Origin: Candidatus Eiseniibacteriota bacterium
Lineage (GTDB): Bacteria > Eisenbacteria > RBG-16-71-46 > JASEGR01
Direction: 5' to 3'
Length of the DNA stretch: 64,000 nt
NCBI GenBank assembly: GCA_030017955.1
Contig: JASEGR010000001.1
Coordinates: 13,761 to 77,760 of the forward strand
The translations under genes were made by a program, and so were the position numbers. Under the pieces are notes generated by a model that did not search any database, was not told the origin of the DNA, and saw only the letters and a program-made list of their open reading frames with translations. Positions 27,900 to 50,040 of this stretch are shown here, in pieces. Each line of letters starts with the position of its first letter. The first letter of the stretch is position 1.

Positions 27900-27940
27900 G
27901 GCACAACTTCCTTCTGTGTCGAAATTGCATGAAAGAATTC

Positions 27941-28381: not shown

Positions 28382-28383
28382 GA

Positions 28384-32422: not shown

Positions 32423-33396
32423 AGAACTCCCTTCGTAAGAAGATCCAGAAGCGGTTTTCTGTCAAGAATCATGTTTGAACTGACTCGCTTGTCGGTCATC
32501 CCGATTGAATAGAGAGTCTGTGACACGTGATCGGCAGTCTCGTAGAGCGGGCCGGGCATGTTTTCCATTCCGAACGCCGCAAGATTCAATCTCAAATCAA
32601 GAACATTCACTCCGTTCAATCCGACCGAAAATTCCTCCGGTTTCACATTCATGCACTCTGCCATTATCAGAGACGCTTCTGCAGGATGTTTCCTCCAATA
32701 TGAGAGCGCCCTCAGCCATGCTTTGAGAATGGCAGGCACAACGTTCGGATTCTTTTCAGTCACATCTTGTCTAAAGCAGATGACGTCAACGATTTCCCAG
32801 GGAATTTCCCGTGATGTGAACAGGAGAGTTCCTCGTCCTTTGGCCATCCTCGAAAGAAATGGCTCCCACGTTACCGCAGCATCGAGAGTGCCGTCGTTGA
32901 ACATTTTCTCAGCTTCCGGAGGAGAAATATCAACGAGTTCAAGCTCGCTCGCCTGCACCCCGCTCTTCTCAAGCGCTCTGGTCAGTGTAAAGTGCCCGAG
33001 AGAAGCGTTCTCCAGTCCCACTCTCTTTCCCCTGAGGTCTTTCAAGGAAGTGATGCCGCTCCGGGCCACAATTCCGGCCCCCCCGTAAGAATAGTCAATG
33101 ACAAACGGAATACTCACTCTCGTTCCGCGGGAGGCAAGTATTTCTGCATCGACCATGGTGGTGAGGGAAACATCTACGTTCCCTTTTTCAAGCGCAACAC
33201 GCGAATCGTGGGGCGACAAGAACTCTATGATCTCAACATCTATTCCCTCATCCTTGAAGAACCCCTTTTCTTCTACCAGAAAGAGGAGGGAATACGCGGG
33301 CCTGATATCCAGCCCTATCCTGATAGGCTCTCTCAGGGCAGGCTGACATGAAAAAGCAGATAACAACAGAGAAAGGATAACCAGTGTTTTGCGCAC
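32398..33396 (-). CDS. Periplasmic substrate-binding lipoprotein (NMT1/SsuA/TauA-like ABC SBP fold)
   Basis: 332 aa. Lipoprotein signal LLLSAFSC. Its 3' end overlaps the HK start by 25 bp. No cognate permease or ATPase is nearby. Confidence 0.6.
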   Translation of the reverse strand: MRKTLVILSLLLSAFSCQPALREPIRIGLDIRPAYSLLFLVEEKGFFKDEGIDVEIIEFLSPHDSRVALEKGNVDVSLTTMVDAEILASRGTRVSIPFVIDYSYGGAGIVARSGITSLKDLRGKRVGLENASLGHFTLTRALEKSGVQASELELVDISPPEAEKMFNDGTLDAAVTWEPFLSRMAKGRGTLLFTSREIPWEIVDVICFRQDVTEKNPNVVPAILKAWLRALSYWRKHPAEASLIMAECMNVKPEEFSVGLNGVNVLDLRLNLAAFGMENMPGPLYETADHVSQTLYSIGMTDKRVSSNMILDRKPLLDLLTKGVLWVESLTK

Positions 33397-33469: not shown

Positions 33470-34981
33470 CTATTCGTCCTTGAGCGTTTTCCAGTCTATC
33501 GAATAGAGGGTGTAGAAAACAGGAGTTGGCCTCGTTATTCCAAGTCCGGAAATTGAGCCTGTCATAACGGGCCGGAGGGACGCGCGCAGTCTTTCATCAT
33601 TCATCAGGCGTTCCTTTATCTGTGATCTGTCAACAAGATAGTCGGTTCTCTCGTATCTTCCGAAGCTCAGGTCCGACGCAACTTTTTCGACATCGAACTC
33701 TCTCTCTCTCAGAAGGTCCATCAGATGAGGTGAAACCAATGCTCCCAAATCAAGCACTCTTCTGTCGGAATAGTAGCCAATTGCGCCAACGTCAGTCACG
33801 GCAACGGTGGCAAGAGGAGGCGAATTCGATTTGAGCCACTTCCCAATCGGGATCAGGGATTCATTCATCCCTTTGGAGAAGTTCTTTGTATGGGGATAGG
33901 CCTCGAATCTCAGGATATAAAGGTTCACGGAGATTGCGAAAACCGCAAGGAGCGTTGCCCACAAGGCGGCTTTGCCGGCTTTTCCCCGAAACGAGTCATA
34001 GATGGATTCAAGTGAGAGAAATCCCAGAAGGGTCACCGCCGGCAGAACCGGGGCAAGATATCTGGAGAGCACTTCGACCCCCCGCAGAATGTAAAACGAA
34101 GGTAGAAGCGCAAGCCACAGTATGAGGATGAATCTCTCGTTGAGAAGCCGGGGCAACTTCTTCAGTCCTCCGGACGAGACGACCATGATGATGAACAAGA
34201 CGATTGCCAGGATCTCCGGCCCCTGAGTCGCAAGGATTATCTTGCCTGATCTCAGCGCGGCACCAAGTACCTCCGCACCGCTATGTGCGAATCTTCCTGC
34301 TTTGACAAGGGCCGTTGTCGGGATCACAGTGCCGAATGTTCTTTCCGCATAGATCAGCCAGGGCGAGAGAACAACAACATTCAAGACCAACGAAAACACA
34401 AAGCTCCTGAGCCTTCTTCCCTTCCAAGTGAGCCTGCCGGCCAGCATGAGAACAGCGAGGAGAGCCCCTTCCGGCCGGGAAAGAGCAGAGAGTGCGGAGA
34501 AGATAGGAGAGACTCCGAAACTTGTTCCTCTCAGCTTTTCCCTCTCGTGCAAGAAAATGGAAAGAAGGACAGTAAACACGACAAGCGAGGTTTCCATTCC
34601 CGAGAGGGACCACCTCACGACCCACGCGTCGAACGTGAAAGCGAATACTGCGCCGATGACGAATTCTTTTCTCTTCAATGACAGCGATGCAAGGCGGAAG
34701 AAGACAAAAATCGAGCCAAGGGAGAAGATGAAACCGAGAATCTTGCTCACCGCGGGAAGGTCCTGGGTCGCGCTGCCAAACAAGGCAACCAGAAAGACCC
34801 AGAGGGGGCTGGTGGCGCCAAGAACGGCCTCGCCCGTGTTGAAGCACAATCCGTAGCCGTTCTTCAGATTCTTCGCATACTGAAGGTGTATGAACGTGTC
34901 GTCTGTGATATAGCCGAGGAACGGAATCTCCACCAGAACGAAAAGGAGCAAGATTGACAGCCACAGCGTTCTATTCTTCAT
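33470..34981 (-). CDS. GT-C-fold membrane glycosyltransferase-like protein (ArnT/PMT-like)
   Basis: 503 aa with about 11 TM helices, an N-terminal loop DDTFIHLQYA, and a C-terminal soluble domain. Confidence 0.45.
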   Translation of the reverse strand: MKNRTLWLSILLLFVLVEIPFLGYITDDTFIHLQYAKNLKNGYGLCFNTGEAVLGATSPLWVFLVALFGSATQDLPAVSKILGFIFSLGSIFVFFRLASLSLKRKEFVIGAVFAFTFDAWVVRWSLSGMETSLVVFTVLLSIFLHEREKLRGTSFGVSPIFSALSALSRPEGALLAVLMLAGRLTWKGRRLRSFVFSLVLNVVVLSPWLIYAERTFGTVIPTTALVKAGRFAHSGAEVLGAALRSGKIILATQGPEILAIVLFIIMVVSSGGLKKLPRLLNERFILILWLALLPSFYILRGVEVLSRYLAPVLPAVTLLGFLSLESIYDSFRGKAGKAALWATLLAVFAISVNLYILRFEAYPHTKNFSKGMNESLIPIGKWLKSNSPPLATVAVTDVGAIGYYSDRRVLDLGALVSPHLMDLLREREFDVEKVASDLSFGRYERTDYLVDRSQIKERLMNDERLRASLRPVMTGSISGLGITRPTPVFYTLYSIDWKTLKDE

Positions 34982-37266: not shown

Positions 37267-38796
37267 TTATCTTCTCAGAACTCTCTTCGGCCAGTCGAGC
37301 AAAAACCTGATTGTTCCAACCAGTTTCCTGTTCGTCAGAAGCTCCTCAATCCTTCCTCTTTCCGCCTCGTCGAATATCCCGCCGAAGGCAACTCCCAGAT
37401 TGAAGATTATGAGAACCGGAAGCGTCACAGCAAACAAAACGAGAATGTTTGAAGGATGAAAGATTTCCGCAAGAACGGCTGAGCAAAGGAAAGCCGGCGC
37501 TGCAGACAGAACCAGCCGTCCAGGGCAAATATCGGCAAAACTGAACTCCAGGTAGACTCTCGCAAAACGGATATTGAGAAACAGGATACAGATGGATGCG
37601 AAAGCCTGCGAAATCATCATGCCCCACAATCCCAGTCTTCCGATCAGGAGAACTCCCGAGAAAAGGTATATCACGTACCAGGCAAGATCCGATCCTACGG
37701 AAAGGCCGATCCTGCCGGTGGCCCTCAGGGTGGTAGTCACCGAGGAATAGAGACAGGCAAGAGGCACGAGGAATGCCATGAACAGTAGAAGGGGCTCACT
37801 TCCCTGAAACTCTTTGCTGGTCACAAGGAGAACAAGAGCCCTGTTGCCCAGGACGACAAAGCAGAGGACCAGAAATCCCAGGAGAAACTCAATCTTCATC
37901 AGAAGCGTGAGGTCGGCCCTTATCTCACGGTTTCCCTTCTCCCATTTCCTTGTGATCTCTGGTGAGACCGCAAGGAGCGGAAGGAACAGAAGCTTCTTGA
38001 AGAAATACATTATCCTCGATGCCACGTGAAGAAGTGACACTGCCTGAAAGCTCATGAAGCCGCCGACCACCAGCCGGTCCGAGTTCTCCAAGCCGAGTCC
38101 GATGAAAGTCATGAGGCACGCACCTTTCCAGAAGCTGGAAACCTCTGACGCGGCGCCCAACATTGTTAGCTTTCTCTCGCCTTTCCGCCGGAAGAACAGG
38201 AGCCAGAGAGTTGCAAGTGAAACTATGACTACAATCGCCCCTATGGTGATGAAGACTTTGAAGAGAGCCATGACATCGAGCCGATTTCTGATCACAAAGA
38301 TCCACAGGGTGACAAGTCCTTGAAAAAGTATTTCGAAGACAAAAGGAAAGGTCATTCTCGATAGACCGTTGAATGCACCGTAGATGATGGCCCTCAAGAC
38401 TCCGAAAGCCACGTACGTTGAGGCGAGGAGTATTATCTTCAGACCGAGCGGGGACTCGTGGAAGAGCGAAGATAATCTTCCTCCGAAGGCAATCAATGGA
38501 ATGATCAGAACGACTGCCATGAAACTGGAGAGAATCAGGGAGAATCTGACAAGGTCTCTGGATTTCTCTCTCTCGCCTCTCGCCTCAAACAGAGGAATGA
38601 ATCTGAGTAGAACGAAAGGCAGCCCCAGCTCCATCAGGGCGCCGAAAATTGCGCCCGCCGCGACGCTGGAGGCATAGATGCCGAAACCTATCGGTCCGAG
38701 CCAGACGGCAATTATTTTCGCTTGAATGAGTGTGAAAAAGAGGGTTGAAAAGTGGGATGCAAAAAGGGCGAGAGTGTTTCCCGCAACTCTTTTCAT
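37267..38796 (-). CDS. Polysaccharide flippase (Wzx-like, MOP superfamily)
   Basis: 509 aa with about 12-14 TM helices; typical polysaccharide biosynthesis protein architecture. Confidence 0.65.
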   Translation of the reverse strand: MKRVAGNTLALFASHFSTLFFTLIQAKIIAVWLGPIGFGIYASSVAAGAIFGALMELGLPFVLLRFIPLFEARGEREKSRDLVRFSLILSSFMAVVLIIPLIAFGGRLSSLFHESPLGLKIILLASTYVAFGVLRAIIYGAFNGLSRMTFPFVFEILFQGLVTLWIFVIRNRLDVMALFKVFITIGAIVVIVSLATLWLLFFRRKGERKLTMLGAASEVSSFWKGACLMTFIGLGLENSDRLVVGGFMSFQAVSLLHVASRIMYFFKKLLFLPLLAVSPEITRKWEKGNREIRADLTLLMKIEFLLGFLVLCFVVLGNRALVLLVTSKEFQGSEPLLLFMAFLVPLACLYSSVTTTLRATGRIGLSVGSDLAWYVIYLFSGVLLIGRLGLWGMMISQAFASICILFLNIRFARVYLEFSFADICPGRLVLSAAPAFLCSAVLAEIFHPSNILVLFAVTLPVLIIFNLGVAFGGIFDEAERGRIEELLTNRKLVGTIRFLLDWPKRVLRR

Positions 38797-40214
38797 CTCT
38801 TGCCCAGCGGAGGAACCAGCTCCTTGAGCTTGTCCAGAACTCTCTGATCATCAAGGGTGGCGCAGAGTCTCTCTATCTCCGTTATCTCCTTGTCCAGGTC
38901 AAACGGAAGCTCTCCTTTCTTCGTCACAACCAGTATCTTCTGATGCTCGGTTCTCCGGATAGTCTCCGTCTTTTCCCAAAGTGCTTCAGTCAATTTTTCT
39001 CCCGGTCTCAGCCCGGAAAAAGTTATCTGGATCTCGACCTCGGGAACGAAGCCTGAGAAGGTGATGAGTTCCCTTGCAAGGTCGAGAATCCTGACCGGTT
39101 CACCCATATCGAGCACGAACACTTCGCCGCCTGTCCCGATCGCTCCGGCCTGAAGAACCAGCAGAACCGCTTCTTTCACGGTCATGAAGTATCTCGTTGC
39201 ACTTGCATCCGAGACGGTCACAGGCCCACCTTGGGATATTTGTTTCTTGAAGACCGGGACAACACTGCCGCGCGTCCCAAGCACATTTCCGAATCTTACG
39301 GCCATGAGTTTGGTGGAGTGAGTACCCTTAGCCCGTTCTCCAAGAAAGAACTCTGCCAGCTTCTTGGTTGCGCCCATGACACATGCGGGAGAGACCGCCT
39401 TGTCGGTTGAGAGCATCACAAACCTCTCGGTCCCGGTTCCGATGCAGCTGTCTATCAGGAACTTCGTGCCGAGAAGATTGTTCTTCACCGCCTCAACAGG
39501 ATGAAGCTCCATCAGGTGCACATGTTTGTGTGCGGCAGCATGAAATACAACATCCGGTTTGTGGCGTGAGACCGTCTTTTCGACGACCCGCCTTTCCTTC
39601 AGATCGGCAATCACCGGCAGAAGGCGGGTTTTCCCGGAGGCCAAGCGGACATCGGCCTCAGCTTCAAAGATGCTGTTTTCTCCTCGTCCGAAGAGAACGA
39701 CTTCCTCCGGCTCGAAAGAAAGGACGCGCTTCAGTATTTCTGACCCTATCGAACCTCCGGCGCCCGTGATAAGAATCTTCTTGCCCAGAAGGTAGTTCCT
39801 GAGACTCGATTGATCCACTTCTACAGTCTCTCTGCCGAGGAGGTCATCGCTTTCGACGGTTCTTATCTGATTGATGGTGAAGTCGCCGCGGATGATCTCC
39901 CTGATTCCCGGGACGATCTTGAATCTGACCTTCGCTTTCTCGCAGTACCTGGCGAGCGTCCTTATGTCCTTCCCGGTCGCCGACGGGATGGCAATGAGAA
40001 TCTCATCGATTGAGAGTTTGCCGGCAAGCCCTGCGATCTCTTCCCTGCCGCCCAGCACGGGAATCCCCTTCACCTTCTTTCCCTGTTTCTGTGGATCGTC
40101 GTCCACGAAGGCGATAGGGACCAGCAGAAGCTCCGGGTGCGAGAACATCTCGGAGACTGCCATTTCTCCAGCCTCGCCTGCTCCGATTATCAGAACCCTT
40201 GTTTCCTTATTCAC
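38793..40214 (-). CDS. CapD/PglF/WbpM-family nucleotide-sugar 4,6-dehydratase (soluble form)
   Basis: 473 aa. N-terminal CoA-binding-like VLIIGAGEAG and SDR domain KILITGAGGSIGSEI ... STDKAVSPACVMGATKKLAE. Confidence 0.8.
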   Translation of the reverse strand: MNKETRVLIIGAGEAGEMAVSEMFSHPELLLVPIAFVDDDPQKQGKKVKGIPVLGGREEIAGLAGKLSIDEILIAIPSATGKDIRTLARYCEKAKVRFKIVPGIREIIRGDFTINQIRTVESDDLLGRETVEVDQSSLRNYLLGKKILITGAGGSIGSEILKRVLSFEPEEVVLFGRGENSIFEAEADVRLASGKTRLLPVIADLKERRVVEKTVSRHKPDVVFHAAAHKHVHLMELHPVEAVKNNLLGTKFLIDSCIGTGTERFVMLSTDKAVSPACVMGATKKLAEFFLGERAKGTHSTKLMAVRFGNVLGTRGSVVPVFKKQISQGGPVTVSDASATRYFMTVKEAVLLVLQAGAIGTGGEVFVLDMGEPVRILDLARELITFSGFVPEVEIQITFSGLRPGEKLTEALWEKTETIRRTEHQKILVVTKKGELPFDLDKEITEIERLCATLDDQRVLDKLKELVPPLGKR

Positions 40215-40318: not shown

Positions 40319-43300
40319 CTAACGCAGAACAGCTACCTTGCGCAGCACAGTCTCACCGCCGGCATGGAGTCTGACCACATAGACACCGCTTGCGACCGGT
40401 CTTCCTTCAGTGTTCTTGCCGTCCCAGATTGGCTCTCCCTCACCCTTGTCGCCGAAAGTCCAGACCACTTCCCCTGCGATGGTCAGAATTTTGCCGCTGA
40501 TCAGTCCTTGGAAACCCCGGGCCCTCAGGCTCTTCGTCCCGGATGCCAGATCCAACGGATTTGGATAAACGTATGCCCCCCCGACGCCGGGGCGCGGCTC
40601 CCAGGCCTGATAGCGGCTTATCCCGTCTTCGGTTCCAAACCACACTTCGCCGGTCTCGTCGTTGACAGCAACACATTTCACGTTTGAGTTCACAATCCAC
40701 TGAGACGTGAAGCTTCTGGCAACAGTCCCGTCCGCCATTATTTTTGCAGGACCACGATCAGTGGCCACCCATTTGTTTCCGAACTTGTCGACTGCGATGT
40801 CCGTTACATTAGAGGACGGAAGGCCATCGGTCTCCTTGGTGTAAACTCTGAACTTGGTAAGGTCCCTGATCACCGTTATTCCGGAGGCCGTGCCTACCCA
40901 GACTTCGTCACCATAGCTGACGATGCTCGTCACAGAGTTTTCCGAAAGTCCTCCGTTTTCATATGTGAGGCGCGTCCATGATCCTACCGCGAAAGGATTT
41001 GCAAGATCGCTAATACTCCAAACATCAACCCCGTTTGCATAATGACCAATCCATCTCTCTTTTCCCCCATCCCTGAAGGCAATCGCCTTTATTTTGTTTG
41101 AGGAGATTGGATAGATTCCAATCATGAGATGACTCCAGGCTCCATCCGAGGAGCGTATGACGATGGGTTCCGTGAGCGGCTCATCTCTTGAATCTTCACC
41201 AAACCAGACGTTCCCCGAAGGATCCTCCTCGATGGACATGATATTCTCGTTGGTCACCGTCTGCGAGGCGGGCGTATAGTGATCGATAGTTCCATCAGCG
41301 AGAATTCTATCCAGTCCGATACCGTATGCGCCAAGCCATTTGTTCTTTCTTGAATCCACAAACACGCTGAAGAAATAATTATCATTGGAAAGGCCTTCGT
41401 TTTTGCCGAAATGCCTCCAGGTCTTTCCATCAAACGAATCGACACCGCCCAGGAAAGCAGCAGTCCAGATTGTCCCGTCTTCGAGTGCAAGCCCGTTAAT
41501 GTTAGTGCCAACCGGCCCCTCCGAGATAAACTTGGTCCACGCACTTCCATCGTAGAATGAAAGCCCCTTGGCAGTACCTGCCCAGACCGTCAGTCCATCA
41601 GAGGTATATAGCGAAAGCACCTCGGTAGACGGCAGACCTGAGCTGATATCGGTAAATGTGCCGGCATAAAGCCTATAGACTCCCTTGTCTCTCGATCCGA
41701 TCAGAAGCGAAGAGGTGCCCCGCACAAGGCTCGTAACATTTCCCCAGAATCCGATGGCCTGCCATCCGGAGCCGGACAGTTTGTAAACCCCGCCGCTGAC
41801 AAATCCAACGGTGCCGCAGCCGACCCACACAGTCTCAGGGCTTGCGGCAAAGGAGGTAGCATTCTTGTTTCCGAGCCCTGTGTTCATCAAGTTCCAGGAG
41901 CTTCCGTCGAAGAAAGAAACTCCGGCGGATGTTCCGCAATAGATGCCGTTTCTCGCCTTGAAAAGAGTGTTTATTTGATTCGAGGGGATCTTGCCGGAAG
42001 TGTTGACGAAATCATGGATAGCTGGATTCTGAAAACCTATGAGAAGAACAACGCCTTTGTCCGCGGTGCCCACCCAAAGGCTGTCGTGAGAAGTGAGAAG
42101 GCAAGTAATCTTGTTCGAAGGAAGTCCATCAACATCTTCTATGAGACGCCAGGTGCCATTCTGGCTGTACATTGAGATTCCGGATGCTTCGGTCCCGAAA
42201 TACTTGTTCCCGTCATCGTCGATAGCAACTGCAGTGAGTTTCTCGCTTGCAAGACCATCAACGACATTGATCTTCGCAAAGGTTGAATCCAGAATCGAGA
42301 ACCTGGATACGCCGCCTGTCGTCGCACACCATAGATACAGTCCCTCACTGGCAACCGATTTTATGCAGTTGGAATTAACGTAGGAACTCCATGGCACGGC
42401 CTCGCTCTTCTGTGAAAACAAGAAAAGAAGGGGAATAATTGACAGCGGAACGATCCTTCTTCTCGCGACAGCCCTGACCAGCGTTTTCAAATCCTCGAAG
42501 AAACTCCACCTTCGGACATAAGACATGTCAAGCTCGAGCCGTTCTCCTTTGAGAAAACTCCTGCCGATGCTTCCCCGCCACGCTGGGAATGCCCCAGGCC
42601 TGACGCGTGAGAGTATCTCTCTTGCTTCAGATCCAAGCTCGTCCCACTCTTCCCTTGAAAGCGCCGAAGGACCTATAAGGCTGAGCTCTCCCCTTACGAC
42701 GTTCACGAGATAGAATGGGAGTCTCAAGCTTCCACCGGCTGGATCATAGTGCGTGAACAGGACACCTCCCTTGCCGACCTTCTGTACCCCGTTGAATCCC
42801 TTCTTGCCGGTGATGAAAGCCGAGAGAAGCCTGAAAAGAAAAAGCGGTGAGAACAGGATCAATCCGATGGTTCCGACGATAAAGTCAAAAATTCTCTTGG
42901 AGGCGCTCTTTCCGTTCCAGAATGTTGCTCCGTCTATGGTCAAAAGAGGTATGCCCGCAAGCGGTTCAACCCTGGTTCTGGACGTCAAGATGTGGAAAGG
43001 TTCGCTCAGAATCCTCACCTTGACTCCCCGACGGGCAAGCGCCGAATAGAAATCGGTCGGGTCATCTGTCCACTCCTGAGGGAATACAACTTCCTGAATT
43101 CTCTCATCGAGTACGAGTGAGATGAGGTCGTTAGGGCTTCCGTCAGGGCCCACGTAAAACTCCTTCGCCTTCGGCGGCCTCAAGAACTCGTAACCCTCAG
43201 CCTTTGCAGCTTCTCTCCTTTCCCACATCTCATCAATAGACTTTGTTTTCCCGATAAGGAGAATTCGCTTCCCGGCGAAGTACGGGCCGAATCCCCTTTG

Positions 43301-44482
43301 CCCTGCCTTTCTTAGAGCGGCCCTTCCGAGAGTCAGAAGAATAGTCATGAGGGGCCAGAGGAGGGCCACAACGAATCTTGAATATGACTTCGTGTAGAGG
43401 AGATATGTGCTTGCCATAAGCACAAGGCAGGCTGCGAGCGCAGACTTCCCCATCCCGAAGAGCTCATCAACCCAGTCGCCTCTCTCGGCTTTACCGTATA
43501 GTCCGGATATCCGGAGGGATGCAAGCGTTACAACATTGGTGACAACCAGGAATGTTCCGTACATATAAAGCGGAAAATGTGGCTTCGCAAACGCAAAACC
43601 CAGCGCCGCTCTGAGCAAGTAGGCGACAAAAAACGAAGCGTTGATCGCCAGGATATCCACGAGAAAAAGCATTCCCTTTCCCATGGCTTCCCTGTTCTTC
43701 TTAAGGAGATAGAGAAACAAACTCCACTTCTCGTAGAACAGGAGGAGACTCCTCACGTGGTAGGCAATGCCTTTTCCGAACAGCTTTGCGCTTTCTCTCC
43801 TGTGATGGTGAACCATCACGGAATCGGAAACATACGTTATCTTCCAGCCCCGCTTGTTCATTCTGTAACACCAGTCAACATCCTCAAAATAGAGAAAGAA
43901 CCTCTCATCGACAGGCCCTACATCTCCTATGGCCTCTCTCCTTACCAGGAGGCACGCACCCATGAGCCAGTCCACAGCCCTTGTGCCCGAGTGGTCCCAG
44001 TCCATCATAAGGTGCTGTCGTACTGCCTTACTATCCGGAAAGATCCTCCCGAGGAAAGTTCTGCGAAGGAGAATCGTTTTCAGAGTGTAGAAAGTTCGCG
44101 CGGAATACTGAAGTGTGCCGTCGGGATTGAGCAGCTTTGCGCTGCAGATCCCGATTCTCTTGTCCAGTTTCATCTGTGAGACAAGCCCGTCTATTGCGCC
44201 GCCGGTCACGGTTATGTCGGGATTGAGCACTAGCAGGTAAGAGGAATCTGTGAGCCCTATGGCTTGGTTTATGGCTCTTCCATAACCTATGTTGGCCGGG
44301 TTCGAGATGAGCTTTGCAGATGGGAACTCTTTCCTGACGAGTGCTGCCGAACCGTGCGTTCTCGAATTGTCTATTACAAGAAGCTCATACTCGGAGGATG
44401 GCGGGTAATCCAGGATTGAGGCGAGACAATTCCTGAGCAGTTCTGGAGTCTCATAGTTGACGACGACAATGCTGAGTTCCAT
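40319..44482 (-). CDS. Multidomain fusion: GT2, WbaP-like polyprenyl-phosphate glycosylphosphotransferase (degenerate motifs), multiple beta-propeller repeats, T9SS/FlgD-Ig-like C-terminal domain
   Basis: 1387 aa single ORF. Residues 1-240 form a GT2 domain (SIVVVNYETPELL...VIDNSR). Residues 260-690 have the TM helices, RILLIGKT region and C-terminal block of a large PGT, but KFRTM and GDMS.VGPRP are replaced by THYDPAG and GELSLIGPSA. Residues 700-1300 are repeated WVGT/WFGT...G..propeller blades. The last 80 residues are YVYPNPLDLASG...GVYVVRLHAGGETVLRKVAVLR (Por-secretion-tail-like). Confidence 0.6.
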   Translation of the reverse strand: MELSIVVVNYETPELLRNCLASILDYPPSSEYELLVIDNSRTHGSAALVRKEFPSAKLISNPANIGYGRAINQAIGLTDSSYLLVLNPDITVTGGAIDGLVSQMKLDKRIGICSAKLLNPDGTLQYSARTFYTLKTILLRRTFLGRIFPDSKAVRQHLMMDWDHSGTRAVDWLMGACLLVRREAIGDVGPVDERFFLYFEDVDWCYRMNKRGWKITYVSDSVMVHHHRRESAKLFGKGIAYHVRSLLLFYEKWSLFLYLLKKNREAMGKGMLFLVDILAINASFFVAYLLRAALGFAFAKPHFPLYMYGTFLVVTNVVTLASLRISGLYGKAERGDWVDELFGMGKSALAACLVLMASTYLLYTKSYSRFVVALLWPLMTILLTLGRAALRKAGQRGFGPYFAGKRILLIGKTKSIDEMWERREAAKAEGYEFLRPPKAKEFYVGPDGSPNDLISLVLDERIQEVVFPQEWTDDPTDFYSALARRGVKVRILSEPFHILTSRTRVEPLAGIPLLTIDGATFWNGKSASKRIFDFIVGTIGLILFSPLFLFRLLSAFITGKKGFNGVQKVGKGGVLFTHYDPAGGSLRLPFYLVNVVRGELSLIGPSALSREEWDELGSEAREILSRVRPGAFPAWRGSIGRSFLKGERLELDMSYVRRWSFFEDLKTLVRAVARRRIVPLSIIPLLFLFSQKSEAVPWSSYVNSNCIKSVASEGLYLWCATTGGVSRFSILDSTFAKINVVDGLASEKLTAVAIDDDGNKYFGTEASGISMYSQNGTWRLIEDVDGLPSNKITCLLTSHDSLWVGTADKGVVLLIGFQNPAIHDFVNTSGKIPSNQINTLFKARNGIYCGTSAGVSFFDGSSWNLMNTGLGNKNATSFAASPETVWVGCGTVGFVSGGVYKLSGSGWQAIGFWGNVTSLVRGTSSLLIGSRDKGVYRLYAGTFTDISSGLPSTEVLSLYTSDGLTVWAGTAKGLSFYDGSAWTKFISEGPVGTNINGLALEDGTIWTAAFLGGVDSFDGKTWRHFGKNEGLSNDNYFFSVFVDSRKNKWLGAYGIGLDRILADGTIDHYTPASQTVTNENIMSIEEDPSGNVWFGEDSRDEPLTEPIVIRSSDGAWSHLMIGIYPISSNKIKAIAFRDGGKERWIGHYANGVDVWSISDLANPFAVGSWTRLTYENGGLSENSVTSIVSYGDEVWVGTASGITVIRDLTKFRVYTKETDGLPSSNVTDIAVDKFGNKWVATDRGPAKIMADGTVARSFTSQWIVNSNVKCVAVNDETGEVWFGTEDGISRYQAWEPRPGVGGAYVYPNPLDLASGTKSLRARGFQGLISGKILTIAGEVVWTFGDKGEGEPIWDGKNTEGRPVASGVYVVRLHAGGETVLRKVAVLR

Positions 44483-44489: not shown

Positions 44490-45203
44490 TCATGCCCTGC
44501 CGAAGAGTTCCTGAAGCCTGAGTCTCCACACCAGCCAGACGGCTTCCCAAATTATTCTCTTCGACATTTTAGAGATTCCGACTCTCCTGTCCACAAAAGT
44601 TATCGGAATCTCTTTTATCTTGAATCCGTTCCTCCATGCCAGATAGCTCATTTCTATCTGGAAAGAGTATCCGTCAGAGTGGATCCTTGAGAGGTCTATG
44701 CTTTCCAGAACTTTCCTTCTGAATGCCTTGAAACCGCCGGTTGCGTCGCGGACCGGGAGTCCGGTGATAACCCTTGTGTAGACATTCGCCATGTAGCTCA
44801 GGATCAGCCTTCCCAAGGGCCAGTTCACGACCGTGACTCCATGAATGTATCTTGATCCCAGGACCAGATCGCAGTCGTCCATCGCCCCGATGAGCTTGGA
44901 AATCTCTGAGGGGTCGTGGGAGAAGTCTGCATCCATCTCCATCACGACATCCGCCCCGTCATTGAGGGCCTGGCGGAACCCCGCCACGTAGGCAGAGCCC
45001 AAACCCATCTTACGCTCCCTATGGAGAACACGTATCCTGCCGTCAGCCTTTCCCAACTCTTCGCCGATCTCGCCTGTCCCGTCAGGTGAATTGTCGTCGA
45101 CAATTAGCACGTTGATTTCATGCGGAAGCTGGAGAATTCTCGAGAGGAGACTACGGATGTTTTCTTTTTCGTTATAGGTAGGGATGACGACAGTTATCTT
45201 CAT
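44490..45203 (-). CDS. Polyprenol-monophosphate hexose synthase (Dpm1/Ppm1-like GT2)
   Basis: 237 aa. MKITVVIPTYNEKENI...VDDNSPDGT...DADFSHDP. Confidence 0.85.
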   Translation of the reverse strand: MKITVVIPTYNEKENIRSLLSRILQLPHEINVLIVDDNSPDGTGEIGEELGKADGRIRVLHRERKMGLGSAYVAGFRQALNDGADVVMEMDADFSHDPSEISKLIGAMDDCDLVLGSRYIHGVTVVNWPLGRLILSYMANVYTRVITGLPVRDATGGFKAFRRKVLESIDLSRIHSDGYSFQIEMSYLAWRNGFKIKEIPITFVDRRVGISKMSKRIIWEAVWLVWRLRLQELFGRA

Positions 45204-47600
45204 TTATGCCTGTTTCTCCCTTCTGGCCTTCATCAATTGAAGAACAAGAGAGAATGCGAGAAGGATGATTATGACGGCGCCGGAAGCAAGACTGGCAAAG
45301 ATGCCCAATCTCAACGAAGGTGACTCGTATCTCATGACAAGGGCGTGTTTCCCGGGCCCGACCTGAATTCCCCGAAACATGCCGTTTGTTCTGTAGACCG
45401 GCACCTCACGATTGTCAAGGTACGCCTTCCAGTCAGGATAAAACAGATCCGACAGAACCAAGAATGAATTTCCGCTCGTATCCAGGTCTATCCGGAGCTC
45501 ATTAAATCCGTATTTCGTGAAAAGCGCCGTGCCGGTCGCGTCAACCCTGAAATCCGAGGTTCCGGCTACAATTGCCTCTCTCCACGGATTGAAGTCCGCT
45601 CTCTTTACCCTGTCCCAGACTTCCAGTTCATTAGGAACATAGACAGCGTTCTCCACGAAATAAGCCCGCGGCAGACAAGCTTCGTTAAGATAAACCTTCT
45701 TCGATCCGTCGAAAACCAGAGAAAGCCCCGGGACCTGCCCCCCGAGTGGTTCATCGGCCACAAAGTACTTCACATTCATCATCGACAACGTCCTCAGGTC
45801 ATTGAGGCCGACTTTCTCAAGGAAATCCTGGTAGAGTTTCGGCTTTGCAGCATGATACCCGCCCACACTCTGGATCTTGAATGCCGTGTATCTGTTTGTC
45901 TGGAACTCGGTCTGACTAAGCGGGAGAATCCGGTAAATGGTCTTGTCCTTCTCAAGAAACTCCACGACATCGTCTCTTCCGATCTTCGGGTCGATCGATT
46001 TCACATCGCCTACTCTTTGCTGCATTATCCTGTAGTCAATCGACCAGAGGTCAATGGCAAGGACGATAAGAAGAAATAGAACCAGCGTACGCTGACCTAT
46101 CCACCTTTTGAAGAAAAAGAATATTCCTGCGAGACCGAATGCAGCTATGACTGAAACCTTGATGAGGTCAGACGAGGCCATGTCGAAGGCGCTGTCGACC
46201 AGCTGCTGCGGAAAATCGCTCCTTACCGACCTTGCCAGATTGTCATAGCTCACGAGGAATGAGCTCTTCGCCACACCGAAAATAAATGCGACCGCAATCA
46301 GCGCTATTGCGCCGTAGAGAGCAAGCTTCCTGATCCCGTTCTGCTCCTTCTGCCTGGAGATTATGAGATTGAGACCCATCCCGGAAAGACAGGCAACCGA
46401 GAACTGAACCAGGACGAGGATCATCACGGGAACTCTGAACTTGTTGAAATAAGGAAGGTGGTCATAGAGCAGGGAATAGAGACTTTCGAAATGTTTTCCG
46501 AAAGAAACAAGGAGAGAAAAAAATGAAAGAAGCAGGAAGAAAACCGTCCATCTTGTCCTGATAAAGATCAGGGCGGCCGCTGCCAGAAGAAGGGGAAGGA
46601 GTCCCATGTAGTTCGGATAGTCGGTGAAGGGCATTGTTCCCCAGTAGGTCTGTCCGCCGAATCCCATGAACGAGGGCACAATGAAAGTGAGCATTTCGAG
46701 CGGACTGAACGACCAGGACGTCGCATACTTGAGCCCGACTCCGCCGCCTTCGGCACCGCCTCTTATCGAGTACTTGCTGTAGTCATTAACCGGAAGGTAC
46801 AGGAAAGCAGAAAGAGCCATGCCCAAGAGAAGTGCCAGGAAAACCATGGAGAAACCCACGAGGGCCCTGCCTTTCGGATTTGAAGTCCTGAGTTCAGCGA
46901 TGAGTTCTACGACCGCATAAAGCCCGATCATGAGCCAGGTGTAATAGACAATCTGGACATGGCCTCTCAGAAGCTGAAATCCTGAAACCATTCCCAGAAG
47001 CGCAAGATAGAGAATCTTTCTTGTCTTGATCAGTCTTGCGGCCAGGAAAAGCAGAAGAGGTATGAAGGACGCAGTAATCAATTGACTGCCGTGTCCAAAC
47101 GCGCCGACAGCAATCAGGTTCGGCGTGAAAAGAAATACTGAAGCACCGTAAAGGGAGGCCAACGGATGGACATTTCTATCTCTCAGGAAAAGGAATAGGA
47201 AAATCCCGCCAAGCAAGTAGTACATGAGAAGCCATGTCATCTCCGGAAGAGGGATGAGGAAAGCGACCGCGTCAAGAATGAGATTTGGAAAGTAGACATA
47301 AGGATTATAGGTCAGGCTTCCATAGGAAGGCATCCCGCAGAAAACATAGGGATTCCAGAACGGATAGGTGTGATCCTTCTTGATTGATTCCTCTCCAAGG
47401 GCGCTGAAGCCCGCCGGCGCCTGAGCATCAGGAGAGGTCCAGATTTTATTGAAGAAAATGAATTGATAGAAGAAGACCAGAAACAGGATAAAGAGTGCGA
47501 GCAGCGAGAAAAGCACAAGATGCTTTTCAAACATATCGGGTTTCCTCGCCTTTATGCCGTGCTCCTGGTGCTTCTTTTCTTTTAGCTTCTTCTTGGCCAT
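45204..47600 (-). CDS. Large polytopic membrane protein, YfhO-like (putative GT-C glycosyltransferase)
   Basis: 798 aa. More than 12 TM helices, a roughly 250-aa periplasmic C-terminal domain and a terminal TM. YPFWNPYVFCGMPSYG N-terminal loop. Its start abuts the Dpm1-like gene stop. Confidence 0.5.
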   Translation of the reverse strand: MAKKKLKEKKHQEHGIKARKPDMFEKHLVLFSLLALFILFLVFFYQFIFFNKIWTSPDAQAPAGFSALGEESIKKDHTYPFWNPYVFCGMPSYGSLTYNPYVYFPNLILDAVAFLIPLPEMTWLLMYYLLGGIFLFLFLRDRNVHPLASLYGASVFLFTPNLIAVGAFGHGSQLITASFIPLLLFLAARLIKTRKILYLALLGMVSGFQLLRGHVQIVYYTWLMIGLYAVVELIAELRTSNPKGRALVGFSMVFLALLLGMALSAFLYLPVNDYSKYSIRGGAEGGGVGLKYATSWSFSPLEMLTFIVPSFMGFGGQTYWGTMPFTDYPNYMGLLPLLLAAAALIFIRTRWTVFFLLLSFFSLLVSFGKHFESLYSLLYDHLPYFNKFRVPVMILVLVQFSVACLSGMGLNLIISRQKEQNGIRKLALYGAIALIAVAFIFGVAKSSFLVSYDNLARSVRSDFPQQLVDSAFDMASSDLIKVSVIAAFGLAGIFFFFKRWIGQRTLVLFLLIVLAIDLWSIDYRIMQQRVGDVKSIDPKIGRDDVVEFLEKDKTIYRILPLSQTEFQTNRYTAFKIQSVGGYHAAKPKLYQDFLEKVGLNDLRTLSMMNVKYFVADEPLGGQVPGLSLVFDGSKKVYLNEACLPRAYFVENAVYVPNELEVWDRVKRADFNPWREAIVAGTSDFRVDATGTALFTKYGFNELRIDLDTSGNSFLVLSDLFYPDWKAYLDNREVPVYRTNGMFRGIQVGPGKHALVMRYESPSLRLGIFASLASGAVIIILLAFSLVLQLMKARREKQA

Positions 47601-48880: not shown

Positions 48881-50040
48881 CGCCCCACCAGTCCCTCGTA
48901 CAGCCCCTCCATCTTCAGCATCCACTGTGCATGATCGGCTTTCTCCCTGACGAGCGAGTAGTTTGCCTCCCGGCTACTGTTTCTCGTTGGCTCGTTTTTC
49001 AGCACAGTCAGTATCGAATCAGCCAGGGATTCCGGCGACTTGTCTCGCGGAAAGATAGCATTCACGCCCGGGGTAAACCATTCACGCACCGAAGGAAGGT
49101 CACTTAGTACCGGGACTGCACCGCAGGCAATCCCTTCGAGAACACTTATTGGCATGCTGTCACTATCCGGTATGGACACCACAACATCGGCAGCCGAATA
49201 ATAGAGTGGCATTTTGTCGTAAGGAACTTCTTCCTGGAAAACAATAGAGCCGCCTATCTTGAGCTCCCCAGCAATTCTCTCCATCTCAAGGCAGAATGAA
49301 TCCTTGGATTCCTGAGAGCGCGGGCCTTTCAAGACAAGTTTTGCCGAGGGGAACTCTTTCAGAACTCTTGGGAATGCACGAAGAATGGTCTCAACGTTGA
49401 AAAGTGCTTTCATCGCTCTTGGACTGAACACTACTGGGCCATCGCCAAGTCCTAACTCCTGCCGAAGCGAGCGTGCATCGATTCCCGGCCGGAAAAGTTC
49501 GAGGTCAACACCCCAGTGAATCAGTTCGATCTTATCCTTCGGAACACCTGCCGCCTGAAATGCACTTCTTCCCCTTTCTGTCTCGGTCGTTATGAGATCG
49601 GCCTTTCTCGCGGTGTAGCCGAATAGAAACTTGTTCAGCCGTCTTCTGTACGGCTCAAGAAACATATCTGAGCCCCAGCCCGTGAGCACAAAAGGATGGA
49701 AATTCGCGAGCGCCCCGGCCCAGCCGTACTGAGTCACGTAATGTGAGTGGAGAATGTCCGGCGATATCTCCTTCAAGATTCTCTTTATCTTTGGCAGGTT
49801 TTTGTAGGCGCTTGTCCTCGGGAAGGGACGAAGCGAAATGTCGATTTCAGTTATTCCCCCGATATTCCCTGGGACGGATGTCATGAGATAGACGTCGTGG
49901 CCTCTTTTCTTGAAAAACGAGAGCCACCGTTTTGTGTGGATACTGTCCCCTACTGCAAGGTAGCAGAGTTTCAAGTAGTCCCTGTCTCCCACACTAGCAT
50001 CGTGTTTTTCATCAAGACCGGGGCTTGAGTCTTCGCGCAC
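48868..50040 (-). CDS. Glycosyltransferase family 4
   Basis: 390 aa. GT-B C-terminal domain with EGIACGAVPVLSDL. Confidence 0.8.
   Translation of the reverse strand: MREDSSPGLDEKHDASVGDRDYLKLCYLAVGDSIHTKRWLSFFKKRGHDVYLMTSVPGNIGGITEIDISLRPFPRTSAYKNLPKIKRILKEISPDILHSHYVTQYGWAGALANFHPFVLTGWGSDMFLEPYRRRLNKFLFGYTARKADLITTETERGRSAFQAAGVPKDKIELIHWGVDLELFRPGIDARSLRQELGLGDGPVVFSPRAMKALFNVETILRAFPRVLKEFPSAKLVLKGPRSQESKDSFCLEMERIAGELKIGGSIVFQEEVPYDKMPLYYSAADVVVSIPDSDSMPISVLEGIACGAVPVLSDLPSVREWFTPGVNAIFPRDKSPESLADSILTVLKNEPTRNSSREANYSLVREKADHAQWMLKMEGLYEGLVGRPSP

Follow-up and report, generated by a model that had tools for sequence, protein, structure and literature searches.

In monoPGTs, the Asp of an Asp-Glu dyad acts as the catalytic nucleophile. 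The architecture of Lg-PGTs, their Asp-Glu dyad and nucleotide binding by their DUF have been described (PMC10942596), and fusions of a GT with a PGT are known as BiPGTs (PMC11626204). PorZ is a protein of solved structure that binds A-LPS (PMC5121618, PMC8545088).

The 64-kb stretch of DNA analyzed here (the window) contains, in one ORF on the minus strand, parts that resemble both. The reading frame is open across all 1387 codons, with no interruption over 4.2 kb, as a sequence-only reading had stated without naming the strand. The inventory given there (GT2, PGT, propeller and tail) was also right, each part being detected within the one frame. From the N- to the C-terminus, the ORF is made up of a GT2 domain, a WbaP-type Lg-PGT scaffold, two seven-bladed Reg_prop beta-propellers and a beta-sandwich (Table 1). 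GC content is about 0.50-0.56 along the ORF and continuous through the junction between the two halves. The N-terminal half and the PorZ-like half were modelled separately with AF2 and compared with the PDB using Foldseek. The 64-kb window gave no match to another monoPGT.

Table 1. Features of the fused ORF and its neighbors (window coordinates; aa numbering of the fused protein)
Feature	Position	Strand	Basis
Fused ORF, 1387 aa + stop, ATG start	40319..44482	(-)	NCBI protein MDI6807394.1, annotated 'glycosyltransferase', Candidatus Eisenbacteria MAG
GT2 (GT-A fold) glycosyltransferase domain, aa 1-~235	43778..44482	(-)	PF00535, PF13641, invariant alignment columns, GT-A PDB matches
Four Lg-PGT transmembrane helices, aa 272-290, 305-325, 344-362, 370-388	43319..43669	(-)	Kyte-Doolittle peaks; TIGR03025 and WbaP/WcaJ model alignment from profile position 1; AF2 helices
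Cytoplasmic alpha/beta domain resembling Lg-PGT DUF (PF13727, CoA_binding_3-like), aa ~395-520	42923..43300	(-)	Inside TIGR03025 alignment 274-559; AF2 beta-alpha pattern, low confidence
Re-entrant membrane helix of PGT core, aa ~528-556, KRIFD...LFSPLFLF, Ser-Pro motif kept	42815..42901	(-)	Hydropathy peak 531-549; aligned to WbaP 274-327
Degenerate PGT catalytic core, aa 557-672	42467..42814	(-)	Split Bac_transf match, WbaP alignment gap, alignments A1 and A2
Fusion junction, former signal peptide of downstream gene, aa 674-695, RRR / IVPLSIIPLLFLF / SQKSEA	42398..42463	(-)	Stand-alone homologue N-termini, L002 gene 2 start, hydropathy peak 671-689
Beta-propeller 1, seven blades, Reg_prop type, aa ~698-977, predicted periplasmic	41552..42391	(-)	AF2, Foldseek, Reg_prop
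Beta-propeller 2, seven blades, aa ~982-1292	40607..41539	(-)	AF2, Foldseek, PorZ model NF052228, L001 alignment
C-terminal seven-strand beta-sandwich, T9SS-CTD / FlgD-Ig-like, aa ~1304-1387, YPNP... to ...VAVLR	40322..40573	(-)	AF2 strands 615-697 of model, PorZ 5M11 alignment to end
Upstream cassette gene, 237-aa GT2, polyprenyl-phosphate-sugar synthase type	44490..45203	(-)	Best NCBIfam matches AglJ, ArnC, PpgS, PgfS, dolichyl-P hexose transferase, all under cut-offs
Upstream cassette gene, 798-aa YfhO-like polytopic membrane protein, putative GT-C glycosyltransferase	45204..47600	(-)	Pfam YfhO 27.2 bits vs cut-off 28.5
Downstream neighbor, PglF/CapD-type UDP-sugar 4,6-dehydratase, CoA_binding_3 domain without 4-TM bundle	38793..40214	(-)	Polysacc_synt_2 E 9.5e-105; PseB and FnlA models

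The GT2 catalytic domain proposed earlier was recovered by Pfam Glycos_transf_2 at aa 4-136, far above the cut-off (E 2.9e-15, 57 bits versus 23). Its motifs NPD (aa 87-89) and EDVD (aa 200-203) are invariant across homologues (alignments A1 and A2), so that this domain, predicted to be cytoplasmic, is presumably active. AF2 modelled it with a pLDDT of ~88, and the PDB search returned GT-A folds; the model of the whole N-terminal half was poor (pLDDT 66, pTM 0.41). TIGR03025 matches aa 274-559 (profile positions 1-288 of 445, E 1.6e-41). In the Pfam search, PF13727 stayed below threshold in the fused protein itself and was found in homologues P0003-P0009 and in the proteins of loci L002, L004 and L006. 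K529 and D533 of the re-entrant helix are invariant in the homologue alignments.

The PGT core that follows has decayed. Pfam Bac_transf matches it with 53.6 bits (cut-off 27), in two pieces, and only profile positions 94-174 match well. Compared with solved WbaP, aa 522-576 correspond to WbaP 274-327 and aa 591-672 to WbaP 386-466; 14 residues of the fused protein replace 58 of WbaP (residues 328-385), leaving about 44 missing. The segment KFRTM...DPR...LDELPQ is deleted, the Asp-Glu dyad is gone, GPRP has become GPSA, and no acidic pair is present between aa 577 and 597; the PGT fold keeps its C-terminal half. Degenerate PGT signatures had been noted before, and the WbaP alignment shows that the change exceeds substitution. 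In alignment A1, five homologues (P0003, P0005-7, P0009) retain KFRSM, LDELPQ and GEMSLVGPRP, and the segment deletion is common to the fused protein, P0004 and P0008. Comparable decay was found in all relatives that adjoin a PorZ-like gene, and the core is eroded even further in the L002 and L004 orthologues. Judging from these alignments, the PGT core is catalytically dead, and its 12 invariant remnant columns (alignment A2) point to a retained fold.

It is therefore very improbable that the protein is an active bifunctional priming enzyme, in which the PGT-like domain still loads polyprenyl phosphate with a sugar phosphate and the protein links initiation with a surface lectin. The Bac_transf score does exceed the gathering threshold, the five homologues with all motifs are GT-PGT fusions of the kind described as BiPGTs (PMC11626204), and the window lacks another monoPGT. 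Nevertheless, the dyad (PMC10942596) lost with the KFRTM segment includes the Asp nucleophile, the GPRP motif is altered, nothing acidic takes the place of the dyad, and orthologues have lost still more. The sequence-only reading had offered both a priming enzyme hard-wired to a surface lectin and an inactive PGT scaffold; deletion of the catalytic segment speaks against the former, and together with the GPRP to GPSA change it supports the latter.

The propeller region recognized earlier resolves into two seven-bladed Reg_prop propellers (Pfam Reg_prop, 69 bits versus a cut-off of 20.4), and no Y_Y_Y domain was found by Pfam in the fused protein. The AF2 model of the C-terminal 690 aa has a pLDDT of 90.3 and a pTM of 0.82, with 28 strands in propeller 1. 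The best PDB match by Foldseek was PorZ (5M11, E 1.3e-30, TMq 0.70), aligned through the C-terminal end, followed by the sensor domains of BT3049, BT4663 and BT4673 (HTCS). Propeller 2 aligns with the single propeller of the 438-aa L001 orthologue. Among the relatives, 41/41 match the PorZ NCBIfam model NF052228 and 26/41 match TIGR04183 at E<=0.01. By its predicted structure, the C-terminal 690-aa part is a PorZ-like protein, even though its PorZ HMM score is under the curated cut-off. Likewise, TIGR04183 (aa 1305-1384, 15.6-17.9 bits) and FlgD_ig (13.9 bits) remain under their cut-offs of 23 and 27, respectively. The T9SS/FlgD-Ig-like tail of the sequence-only reading thus stands as a CTD-type domain by predicted fold and relatives, not by HMM threshold.

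Four related loci (L001, L002, L004 and L006, at least three of them from Ca. Eisenbacteria) encode the two halves in separate genes that lie next to each other and overlap by 4 bp. The cassette order there is YfhO-like GT-C, 237-aa GT2, GT2/dead-PGT gene (gene 1) and PorZ-like gene (gene 2). All four have the 237-aa GT2 gene, L001, L004, L006 and L007 carry a YfhO call at the syntenic position, and the 4,6-dehydratase holds the equivalent position in L001. The P0008 contig, a candidate fifth locus, has an equal 4-bp overlap, with the downstream gene cut by the contig end. The downstream protein of L001 carries a signal peptide of its own, and its alignment with the fused protein covers aa 994-1387 (29% identity, E 8e-33). 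No second fused copy was found among 1.84 billion representative proteins, none of which spans both halves; the earlier statement that there is no obvious precedent is borne out as far as the fusion is concerned. The fused protein forms a singleton cluster whose only source is one MAG contig, and no independent contig was found to carry the junction.

By comparison with the relatives, the fusion point falls exactly at the signal peptide of gene 2. Stand-alone homologues align, from their own residues 3-13, to aa 671-679 of the fused protein onward. Gene 2 of L002 begins V-R-I-V-P ('VRIVPG') where the window has R-R-I-V-P, and the distance between the conserved 'ED' and 'RIVP' is smaller by 8 nt in the window than in L002, so that the two frames merge. 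The final conserved motif in gene 1, WSFFEDLKTLVRAV, is contiguous and in frame with the n-, h- and c-regions of the gene 2 signal peptide; the h-region is short (13 residues), and an S-x-A site as in cleavable signal peptides places a possible signal peptidase I cut after A695 (RRR-IVPLSIIPLLFLF-SQKSEA/VP). The other two frames contain neither an ATG, GTG or TTG just upstream of the junction nor a signal-peptide-like reading.

An assembly or sequencing artefact, with two genes in the true genome and a MAG consensus error at the junction, would agree with the 4-bp overlap in all examined relatives carrying both halves and with the origin of the only copy from one contig. We consider it unlikely, since WSFFEDLKTLVRAV and the signal-peptide regions share one frame and the others lack a start or signal peptide, so that a single indel cannot restore both stop and start; a net change of ~8 nt would be needed relative to an L002-like arrangement. 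Continuous GC and two-sided synteny as in relatives argue against a chimeric join.

We favor, as the probable explanation, an in-frame lineage-specific fusion of two adjacent Ca. Eisenbacteria envelope-glycan cassette genes that are translationally coupled in relatives, GT2/dead-PGT and PorZ-like, joined at the signal peptide. The position of the join marks the ORF as a gene fusion of derived origin, not as an architecture designed as a unit, and it is consistent with a cytoplasmic first half and periplasmic propellers; hydropathy and charge agree with the N-in/C-out topology proposed for the junction. We infer that the N-terminal 672 aa would stay on the cytoplasmic face, while RRR-IVPLSIIPLLFLF-SQKSEA would insert N-in/C-out and move the PorZ-like half into the periplasm. 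The GT2 domain may extend a polyprenyl-linked glycan primed by a PGT encoded elsewhere, with the dead PGT core as a membrane-interface or carrier-lipid-binding scaffold, and outside the cytoplasm the PorZ-like half may bind that glycan, or a form of it modified by YfhO, as PorZ does with A-LPS. At the junction, signal peptidase I would either cleave after A695 or leave the segment in place as an anchor. The product is probably a two-protein module in the form of a polyprotein, or one tethered to the membrane: cleavage would yield, in a 1:1 ratio, the two proteins that relatives make from separate genes, and an uncut junction would tether the propellers to the inner membrane and leave the CTD unusable as an outer-membrane export signal.

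That uselessness of the CTD, and the uniqueness of the fusion among 1.84e9 representative proteins, would also fit a non-functional accident, in which a neutral or mildly harmful mutation arose recently in one population and one or both halves no longer work. This appears quite unlikely, as the 4.2 kb contain no additional stop or frameshift, the invariant GT2 and scaffold residues are kept, the propeller fold is predicted with high confidence, and the signal-peptide features of the junction are intact.

Alternatively, the protein could be a transmembrane regulator whose periplasmic double propeller senses glycan and, by way of the membrane-spanning junction and the dead PGT/DUF module, modulates the cytoplasmic GT2. 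The propellers resemble the periplasmic sensor domains of the Bacteroides hybrid two-component sensors BT4663, BT3049 and BT4673 in sequence and fold, one membrane segment connects them with the cytoplasmic domains, and the DUF of WbaP is a nucleotide-sensing regulatory domain (PMC10942596). However, in all relatives the propeller protein is separate and secreted, with its own signal peptide and CTD-type tail, so the ancestral function cannot have been sensing across a covalent link. The 13-residue h-region and S-x-A site are those of a cleavable signal peptide, unlike a signalling TM helix, PorZ outranks the HTCS sensors structurally, and the Y_Y_Y domain is absent. We regard such a sensor as improbable.

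At L007, the PorZ-like gene directly follows YfhO and GT2 and the GT2/dead-PGT gene is absent; it may therefore be the YfhO pair, and not gene 1, with which the PorZ-like protein works. The same arrangement would suit a PorZ-like half that, instead of binding glycan, serves as protein substrate for the adjacent YfhO-like GT-C and polyprenyl-P-sugar synthase, as in periplasmic protein O-glycosylation by Streptococcus mutans Pgf, with the fusion to gene 1 incidental. PgfS is among the best model matches of the 237-aa GT2, and the Pgf machinery, as outlined in bioRxiv 10.1101/2022.10.10.511621, glycosylates surface adhesins. On the other hand, PorZ is a proven glycan binder (PMC8545088), the nearest folds are carbohydrate sensors, and the YfhO family members characterized to date act on teichoic acids (PMC5836110). 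A substrate role thus seems a poor prospect.

The ORF is a lineage-specific fusion known from one MAG only; it is a curiosity and does not amount to a new type of system. Of wider interest are the clade of dead PGTs and the linkage of this clade with PorZ-like genes. The scaffold is of the WbaP type, built from four TM helices, a DUF, a re-entrant helix and a PGT core, and in the core 14 residues stand where WbaP has residues 328-385. The HTCS sensors BT4663, BT3049 and BT4673 share the propeller fold and rank below PorZ as structural matches. PorZ itself is like the C-terminal half of the fused protein in fold, A-LPS binding being a feature of PorZ (PMC8545088).

The sequence-only reading had placed one open reading frame at window positions 40319-44482, and both the frame and its coordinates hold on the minus strand. 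Read on the plus strand, the same interval translates into a sequence full of stops, so the ORF was assigned to the minus strand. The ATG of the fused ORF lies 8 nt beyond the upstream gene's stop, and the frame extends uninterrupted over 1387 codons to a TAA/TGA-type stop. GC content stays at 0.50-0.56 along its whole length and does not shift at domain junctions. The length of this open frame is not due to chance, and each part matches a protein family in frame. NCBI lists the protein as MDI6807394.1 ('MAG: glycosyltransferase [Candidatus Eisenbacteria bacterium]'), a singleton cluster on one 78-kb contig. The domain searches and structure model suggested in the sequence-only reading recovered the GT2 domain, the PGT-like region, the Reg_prop propellers and a CTD-type fold.

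Features of the fused ORF (aa, residues of its protein) and of neighbouring genes (window positions)
Feature	Position	Strand	Basis or content
GT2 / GT-A domain	aa 1-~235		PF00535, 57.1 bits vs 23.3; PF13641, 45.3 vs 27 (above gathering thresholds)
Four hydrophobic helices (Lg-PGT four-TM bundle)	aa 272-388		Hydropathy peaks; TIGR03025/TIGR03022/TIGR03023 aligned from profile position 1
Alpha/beta region at DUF position	aa ~395-520		Inside TIGR03025 alignment
Hydrophobic helix, KRIFD...LFSPLF	aa 528-556		Hydropathy peak 531-549; K529, R530, D533, S-P motif; aligned to WbaP 274-327
PGT catalytic-core remnant	aa 557-672		Pfam and WbaP alignment
Junction segment RRR-IVPLSIIPLLFLF-SQKSEA	aa 674-695		Hydropathy and comparison with L002
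Two seven-bladed Reg_prop propellers	aa 698-1292		Pfam and AF2
Seven-strand beta-sandwich	aa 1304-1387		AF2 strands at model residues 615-697
Second GT2, LA_3751/LA_3752-family GT and 503-aa protein (set)	58846-59478, 59551-61050, 33470-34981	all (-)	
dcw cluster genes	12338-29331	(-)	rsmH, ftsI (PASTA), murE, murF, mraY, murD, ftsW, murG, murC, murB, ftsQ, ftsA, ftsZ

The acidic motifs N87-P88-D89 and E200-D201-V202-D203 of the N-terminal domain are invariant in two alignments of homologues of this half (A1 and A2). The DxD-type motif for metal and nucleotide-sugar binding and the downstream acidic catalytic motif of a GT2 are thus both kept. The Lg-PGT models TIGR03025, TIGR03022 and TIGR03023 match the region of aa ~272-520 with an E-value of 1.6e-41, yet the score of 143 bits lies below the TIGR03025 subfamily cut-off of 295.55. 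The Pfam family PF13727 (CoA_binding_3) was not reported in the fused protein, even though the region falls within the TIGR03025 alignment and PF13727 is present in homologues. The helix at aa 528-556 is predicted to be the re-entrant membrane helix of the PGT core. AF2 modelling of the N-terminal 721 aa from an 8-sequence alignment gave low confidence (pLDDT 66, pTM 0.41), and the model was used for secondary structure and Foldseek matches only, not for geometry. Its best PDB match was WbaP (8T53, E 1.4e-12, 430 columns), which is also a sequence match, followed by GT-A enzymes.

The PGT core appears to be catalytically dead, because the segment with the KFRTM, DPR and Asp-Glu motifs is missing. 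In the alignment, aa 522-576 correspond to WbaP 274-327 and aa 591-672 to WbaP 386-466, so that 14 residues stand for the 58 of WbaP 328-385. The stretch thus absent contains KFRTM, the DPR region and the LDELPQ segment with the Asp-Glu dyad, a conserved catalytic feature of monoPGTs (PMC10942596); the net loss is about 44 residues. No acidic pair occurs in aa 577-597, and GPRP is changed to GPSA. Two roles had been considered for this half from the sequence alone. That of a priming enzyme is not supported, given the absence of the catalytic segment, while that of an inactive PGT scaffold is supported by the deletion of the KFRTM/Asp-Glu segment and the change of GPRP to GPSA.

Loss of the catalytic segment is common to a small group of proteins. 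The nearest relatives are GT2-LgPGT proteins of 765-795 aa with 35-38% identity. In alignment A1, KFRSM, LDELPQ and GEMSLVGPRP are kept in five of them (P0003, P0005, P0006, P0007 and P0009), and the deletion is shared by the query, P0004 (Ca. Eisenbacteria GCA_014728125.1) and P0008. The 647-aa orthologues at the related loci L002 and L004 have lost further sequence in the alignment, including part of the re-entrant helix; they retain G-x-L-S-x-V-G, RPG and Y..FS...D. The 647-aa protein of a third related locus, L006, gave no Bac_transf match. Since 12 columns of the remnant are invariant across six aligned sequences, we infer that its fold has been kept for a non-catalytic role. The catalytically intact P0006 and P0007 lack a PorZ-like neighbour; in the small sample of relatives examined, the dead core and a PorZ-like partner co-occur.

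No active monotopic PGT was found in the 64-kb window, where a profile of the intact PGT core, run against six-frame ORFs, matched the fused ORF only. The only PGT of the other kind in the window is the polytopic MraY of the dcw cluster (21811-22896). The glycan cluster spans about 30 kb without an intact monotopic PGT.

The C-terminal half is best described, from the model, as a PorZ-like fold with two propellers and a CTD sandwich. PF07494 (Reg_prop) scored 69 bits (threshold 20.4), with three stretches passing independently. An AF2 model of aa 690-1387, built from a 41-sequence alignment, has a pLDDT of 90.3 and a pTM of 0.82, and contains 7+7 blades followed by a 7-strand sandwich. Foldseek against the PDB ranked PorZ (5M11) first over its full length (E 1.3e-30, TMq 0.70, TMt 0.66). 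Ranks 2-16 were HTCS sensor domains (BT3049, BT4663, BT4673), which are also the best PDB sequence matches (E 5e-25). The PorZ equivalog model NF052228 covers aa 955-1386 to its last position, with 112.3-118.7 bits, below the cut-off of 260. All 41 relatives in the alignment match the PorZ model (best E 1.2e-93), and 26 of the 41 match TIGR04183 at E<=0.01. PorZ itself has two beta-propellers and a canonical CTD, is secreted by the T9SS with the CTD intact, and binds A-LPS mannan (PMC5121618, PMC8545088). Propeller number varies in the clade: the L001 orthologue (12295-13611, GCA_014728125.1) has 438 aa and one propeller, while the proteins of the window, L002, L004 and L006 have two.

The T9SS-type tail proposed from the sequence alone has a CTD-type fold in the AF2 model and a profile score below the cut-off. 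Against TIGR04183 (cut-off 23), the tail reached 15.6 bits with the whole protein and 17.9 with the C-terminal half, with positions 1-70 of the 72 in the model covered, and PF18962 was not reported in the Pfam search of the fused protein. The sandwich of about 80 aa lies at the extreme C-terminus, and a signal-peptide-derived segment precedes the half that would be exported. The tail would thus have a CTD-type fold as modelled, which is distinct from a demonstrated sorting signal. No T9SS genes were seen within the 64-kb window, and our literature search found nothing on a T9SS in Eisenbacteria.

The two halves are encoded by separate neighbouring genes in related bacteria. Stand-alone proteins of 726-798 aa, several of them from Ca. 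Eisenbacteria, are the nearest full-length matches to the C-terminal half; none of them carries a GT2 or PGT domain. In the loci L001, L002, L004 and L006, the gene order is GT4, YfhO-like (777-819 aa), GT2 (237 aa), GT2/Lg-PGT-like (647-768 aa), PorZ-like (438-737 aa) and more sugar genes, ending near mraZ and the dcw cluster; the window follows it exactly. In these four loci the GT2/Lg-PGT-like and PorZ-like genes are distinct, with a 4-bp overlap (ATGA or GTGA), and the downstream PorZ-like protein carries its own signal peptide. The contig of P0008 agrees with the order, as its downstream gene opens with the same 4-bp overlap before being truncated by the contig end. In L002, L006 and L007, the PorZ-like cassette stops directly before mraZ. 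A further protein of more than 785 aa, at L005:1-2282, has matches to Glycos_transf_4 (polytopic PGT), CoA_binding_3 and Bac_transf (monotopic PGT) together and may be a fusion of both PGT superfamilies; a few genes downstream of it lies another PorZ-like gene, which comes after an Lnt-like gene.

The fused ORF most plausibly arose from two such neighbours, joined at the signal peptide of the downstream one. The upstream gene's last conserved motif (WSFFEDLKTLVRAV) passes directly to RRR-IVPLS... in the window, and the downstream gene of L002 begins V-R-I-V-P-G. Between the conserved 'ED' and 'RIVP', the window is 8 nt shorter than L002, a difference that would have removed the stop and the start and merged the frames. 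In an exhaustive search, the alignments of stand-alone homologues begin at their residues 3-13 and at query aa 671-679. This alignment start and the comparison with L002 point to a former signal peptide as the source of the membrane segment at the junction. Two candidate start codons lie in frame, a TTG (L in EDLK) and an ATG (M in LDMSY), with Shine-Dalgarno-like motifs 1 nt and ~17 nt away. An internal start for a separate PorZ-like half is unsupported, as this spacing is unconvincing and neither of the two other frames contains a start or a signal peptide.

A fused protein was not found elsewhere. The query was the only sequence with both halves in a phmmer search of aa 520-1387 against 1.84e9 representatives, in word-indexed searches with the full protein and with the C-terminal half, and in an hmmsearch of a GT2-PGT profile against all 309 fetched proteins. 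The junction peptide (aa 600-800) had no close relative in genome or metagenome contig collections. The view that the architecture has no obvious precedent holds in so far as no other protein among the 1.84e9 representatives spans both halves. The fusion is a single instance, and it joins two familiar protein types whose genes lie side by side in other genomes.

This single occurrence would also be expected if the junction were an assembly or sequencing artefact, to which we give a slim chance. The two conserved blocks follow each other directly in a single reading frame. Close to the junction, neither a start codon nor a signal peptide is present in the remaining two frames, and a one-base indel could not bring back both a stop and a start. 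GC composition is continuous across the junction and synteny on either side is that of the relatives, for which reasons a chimeric assembly was rejected as well. A trivial artefact is unlikely.

Directly upstream are encoded a YfhO-like polytopic protein and a short polyprenyl-P-sugar-synthase-type GT2, a pair whose order is kept in every related locus. The YfhO Pfam score of the window protein is 27.2, just under the threshold of 28.5; the best matches of the 237-aa GT2 are AglJ, ArnC, PpgS and PgfS. No GtrA/GtcA-type flippase was identified here. On a 4.16-Mb contig, L007 (3743-9268) encodes a YfhO-like protein, a GT2 (205 aa) and a PorZ-like protein without a GT2/pseudo-PGT gene. The conserved core linkage would then be that of the YfhO pair with the PorZ-like gene, and this pair, not the GT2/Lg-PGT-like protein, may be the primary partner of the PorZ-like protein.

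The glycan cluster contains a second short GT2 of the polyprenyl-P-sugar-synthase type (AglJ/ArnC-like), which adjoins a 499-aa putative glycosyltransferase of the LA_3751/LA_3752 family, and a 503-aa membrane protein with a weak match to terminal beta-arabinofuranosyltransferase. Because these occur besides the YfhO/GT2 pair, several extracytoplasmic GT-C-type steps seem to act on one polymer. Among the glycosyltransferases, a B12-binding radical SAM enzyme (50012-51433, minus strand) might serve sugar methylation or another modification. A PglF/CapD-type 4,6-dehydratase (38793-40214, minus strand) keeps CoA_binding_3, the Lg-PGT-like DUF, without the four-TM bundle that is common to full-length PglF and WbaP (PMC10942596). 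A complete dcw cluster adjoins the glycan cluster. Between the two (30452-33396, minus strand), a hybrid histidine kinase gene (HAMP-HisKA-HATPase-receiver) overlaps that of an NMT1/THI5-like periplasmic binding protein.

We propose that the N-terminus lies inside and that aa 1-672 are kept at the cytoplasmic face by four TM helices and the re-entrant helix. A hydrophobic stretch of 13 residues, flanked by RRR, would insert N-in/C-out and export the PorZ-like half, apparently the sole arrangement that would put both halves where their stand-alone homologues reside. The three parts of a signal peptide are still recognisable at the junction, where the h-region is short and S693-E694-A695 agrees with the -3/-1 rule. 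If signal peptidase I cut here, the same two products as in the relatives would arise at a fixed 1:1 ratio, which would explain why the fusion is tolerated. In an uncleaved form, the propellers would stay anchored in the inner membrane, and the CTD could not serve export.

The GT2 would elongate a polyprenyl-linked glycan. Its priming PGT would be encoded elsewhere, as the 64 kb hold no active monoPGT and MraY as the only polyPGT. The dead core and the DUF may form a scaffold at the membrane interface or one that binds carrier lipid or nucleotide. Like CsbB/YfhO systems (PMC5836110), the 237-aa GT2 and the YfhO-like protein would add a sugar on the extracytoplasmic side, and the PorZ-like half would bind the glycan product. 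The boldest version has three parts: a functional uncleaved polypeptide that couples a cytoplasmic elongating GT2 on a dead-PGT carrier-lipid scaffold to a periplasmic PorZ-type receptor; a cassette (YfhO-like GT-C, 237-aa GT2, GT2/dead-PGT and PorZ-like gene) that is a dedicated A-LPS-like anchor-glycan pathway; and a pseudo-PGT that is the first recognised conserved dead monoPGT. We regard it as rather improbable.

To our knowledge, PorZ has been described from Bacteroidota alone, as a surface component of the T9SS. If the fusion does act uncleaved, members of the PorZ family outside Bacteroidota would work at the glycan biosynthetic machinery, instead of or before the surface T9SS complex. 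Proteins that are neighbours in other Eisenbacteria form one polypeptide here, which argues for joint action in the Rosetta-stone sense. For T9SS research, the fusion links a PorZ-type protein to a specific glycan-synthesis cassette and suggests a source of ligands for PorZ homologues in other phyla. For PGT research, the small GT2-LgPGT clade with an inactivated yet retained phosphotransferase core is a natural test of a non-catalytic role of the Lg-PGT scaffold; such a pseudo-enzyme was not found described in the PGT literature examined. The Bac_transf scores of these proteins lie above the threshold, so that annotation would class them as initiating enzymes. The fusion comes from one MAG, and cleavage of the junction might leave it with little physiological consequence. 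Of more lasting value are the conserved pseudo-PGT clade and the genetic coupling between PorZ-like proteins and the YfhO-type cassette in Ca. Eisenbacteria, for which the fusion is Rosetta-stone evidence.

Among known systems, Bradyrhizobium FbcH, the cytochrome b-c1 precursor, reportedly is a polyprotein split at an internal signal peptide (Thony-Meyer et al., 1991). FbcH likewise combines a polytopic membrane protein, a signal-peptide-like segment and a periplasmic domain in one ORF; the protein families are unrelated, and cleavage of the fused ORF is hypothetical. The propellers of the periplasmic sensor domains of Bacteroides HTCS bind oligosaccharides. These sensors (BT4663, BT3049, BT4673; 4A2L, 3V9F, 3OTT) share the double seven-bladed Reg_prop propellers with the fused ORF, which however has no Y_Y_Y, histidine kinase or response regulator and carries a CTD-type tail in place of the TM-kinase. 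Their whole-model TM-scores (0.36-0.38) are lower than that of PorZ. Systems of a CsbB/GtrB-type synthase with a YfhO/GT-C protein, both of which have counterparts directly upstream of the fused ORF, have been characterised in Gram-positive teichoic-acid glycosylation (PMC5836110, PMC8035078). They differ in their Gram-positive hosts, and here the YfhO match falls just short of its threshold and the GtrA/GtcA flippase is missing from the genes identified.

With Lg-PGTs of the WbaP type (8T53; TIGR03025, TIGR03022, TIGR03023), the fused ORF shares the four-TM bundle, a putative DUF region, the predicted re-entrant helix with Ser-Pro, and the C-terminal half of the catalytic core (G-x-L/M-S-x-I/V-G, RPG, Y..WS...D). 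In contrast to them, it is about 44 residues short, including KFRTM and the Asp-Glu dyad, has GPSA for GPRP, scores 143 against 295 bits, and adds an N-terminal GT2 and a 715-aa C-terminal extension. In BiPGTs, a glycosyltransferase or acetyltransferase domain is fused to a monoPGT core (PMC11626204, PMC10942596). The placement of a GT domain N-terminal to a monoPGT-family module is the same here, and the intact GT2-LgPGT relatives (769-795 aa, 35-38% identity) have it as well. The PGT half is, however, apparently dead in the query, P0004, P0008 and the L002, L004 and L006 proteins, which would make these at most monofunctional, and in this clade a PorZ-like protein occurs as a separate partner or as a fused part. 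As the defining catalytic feature is absent, the N-terminal half should not be filed as a PGT.

The closest counterpart of the C-terminal half is PorZ of the P. gingivalis T9SS attachment complex (5M11; NF052228), with which it has two propellers and a CTD sandwich in common at a similar length (692 aa past the junction versus ~750). It differs in its score (112-119 versus 260 bits) and in sequence (17% identity to 5M11). It also differs in its host, which is a member of Ca. Eisenbacteria and not of Bacteroidota, in the location of its gene within a glycan-synthesis cassette by the dcw cluster, and in its covalent fusion to an inner-membrane protein. PorZ binds a glycan, A-LPS (PMC8545088); the C-terminal half folds like PorZ in the model and may also work like it.
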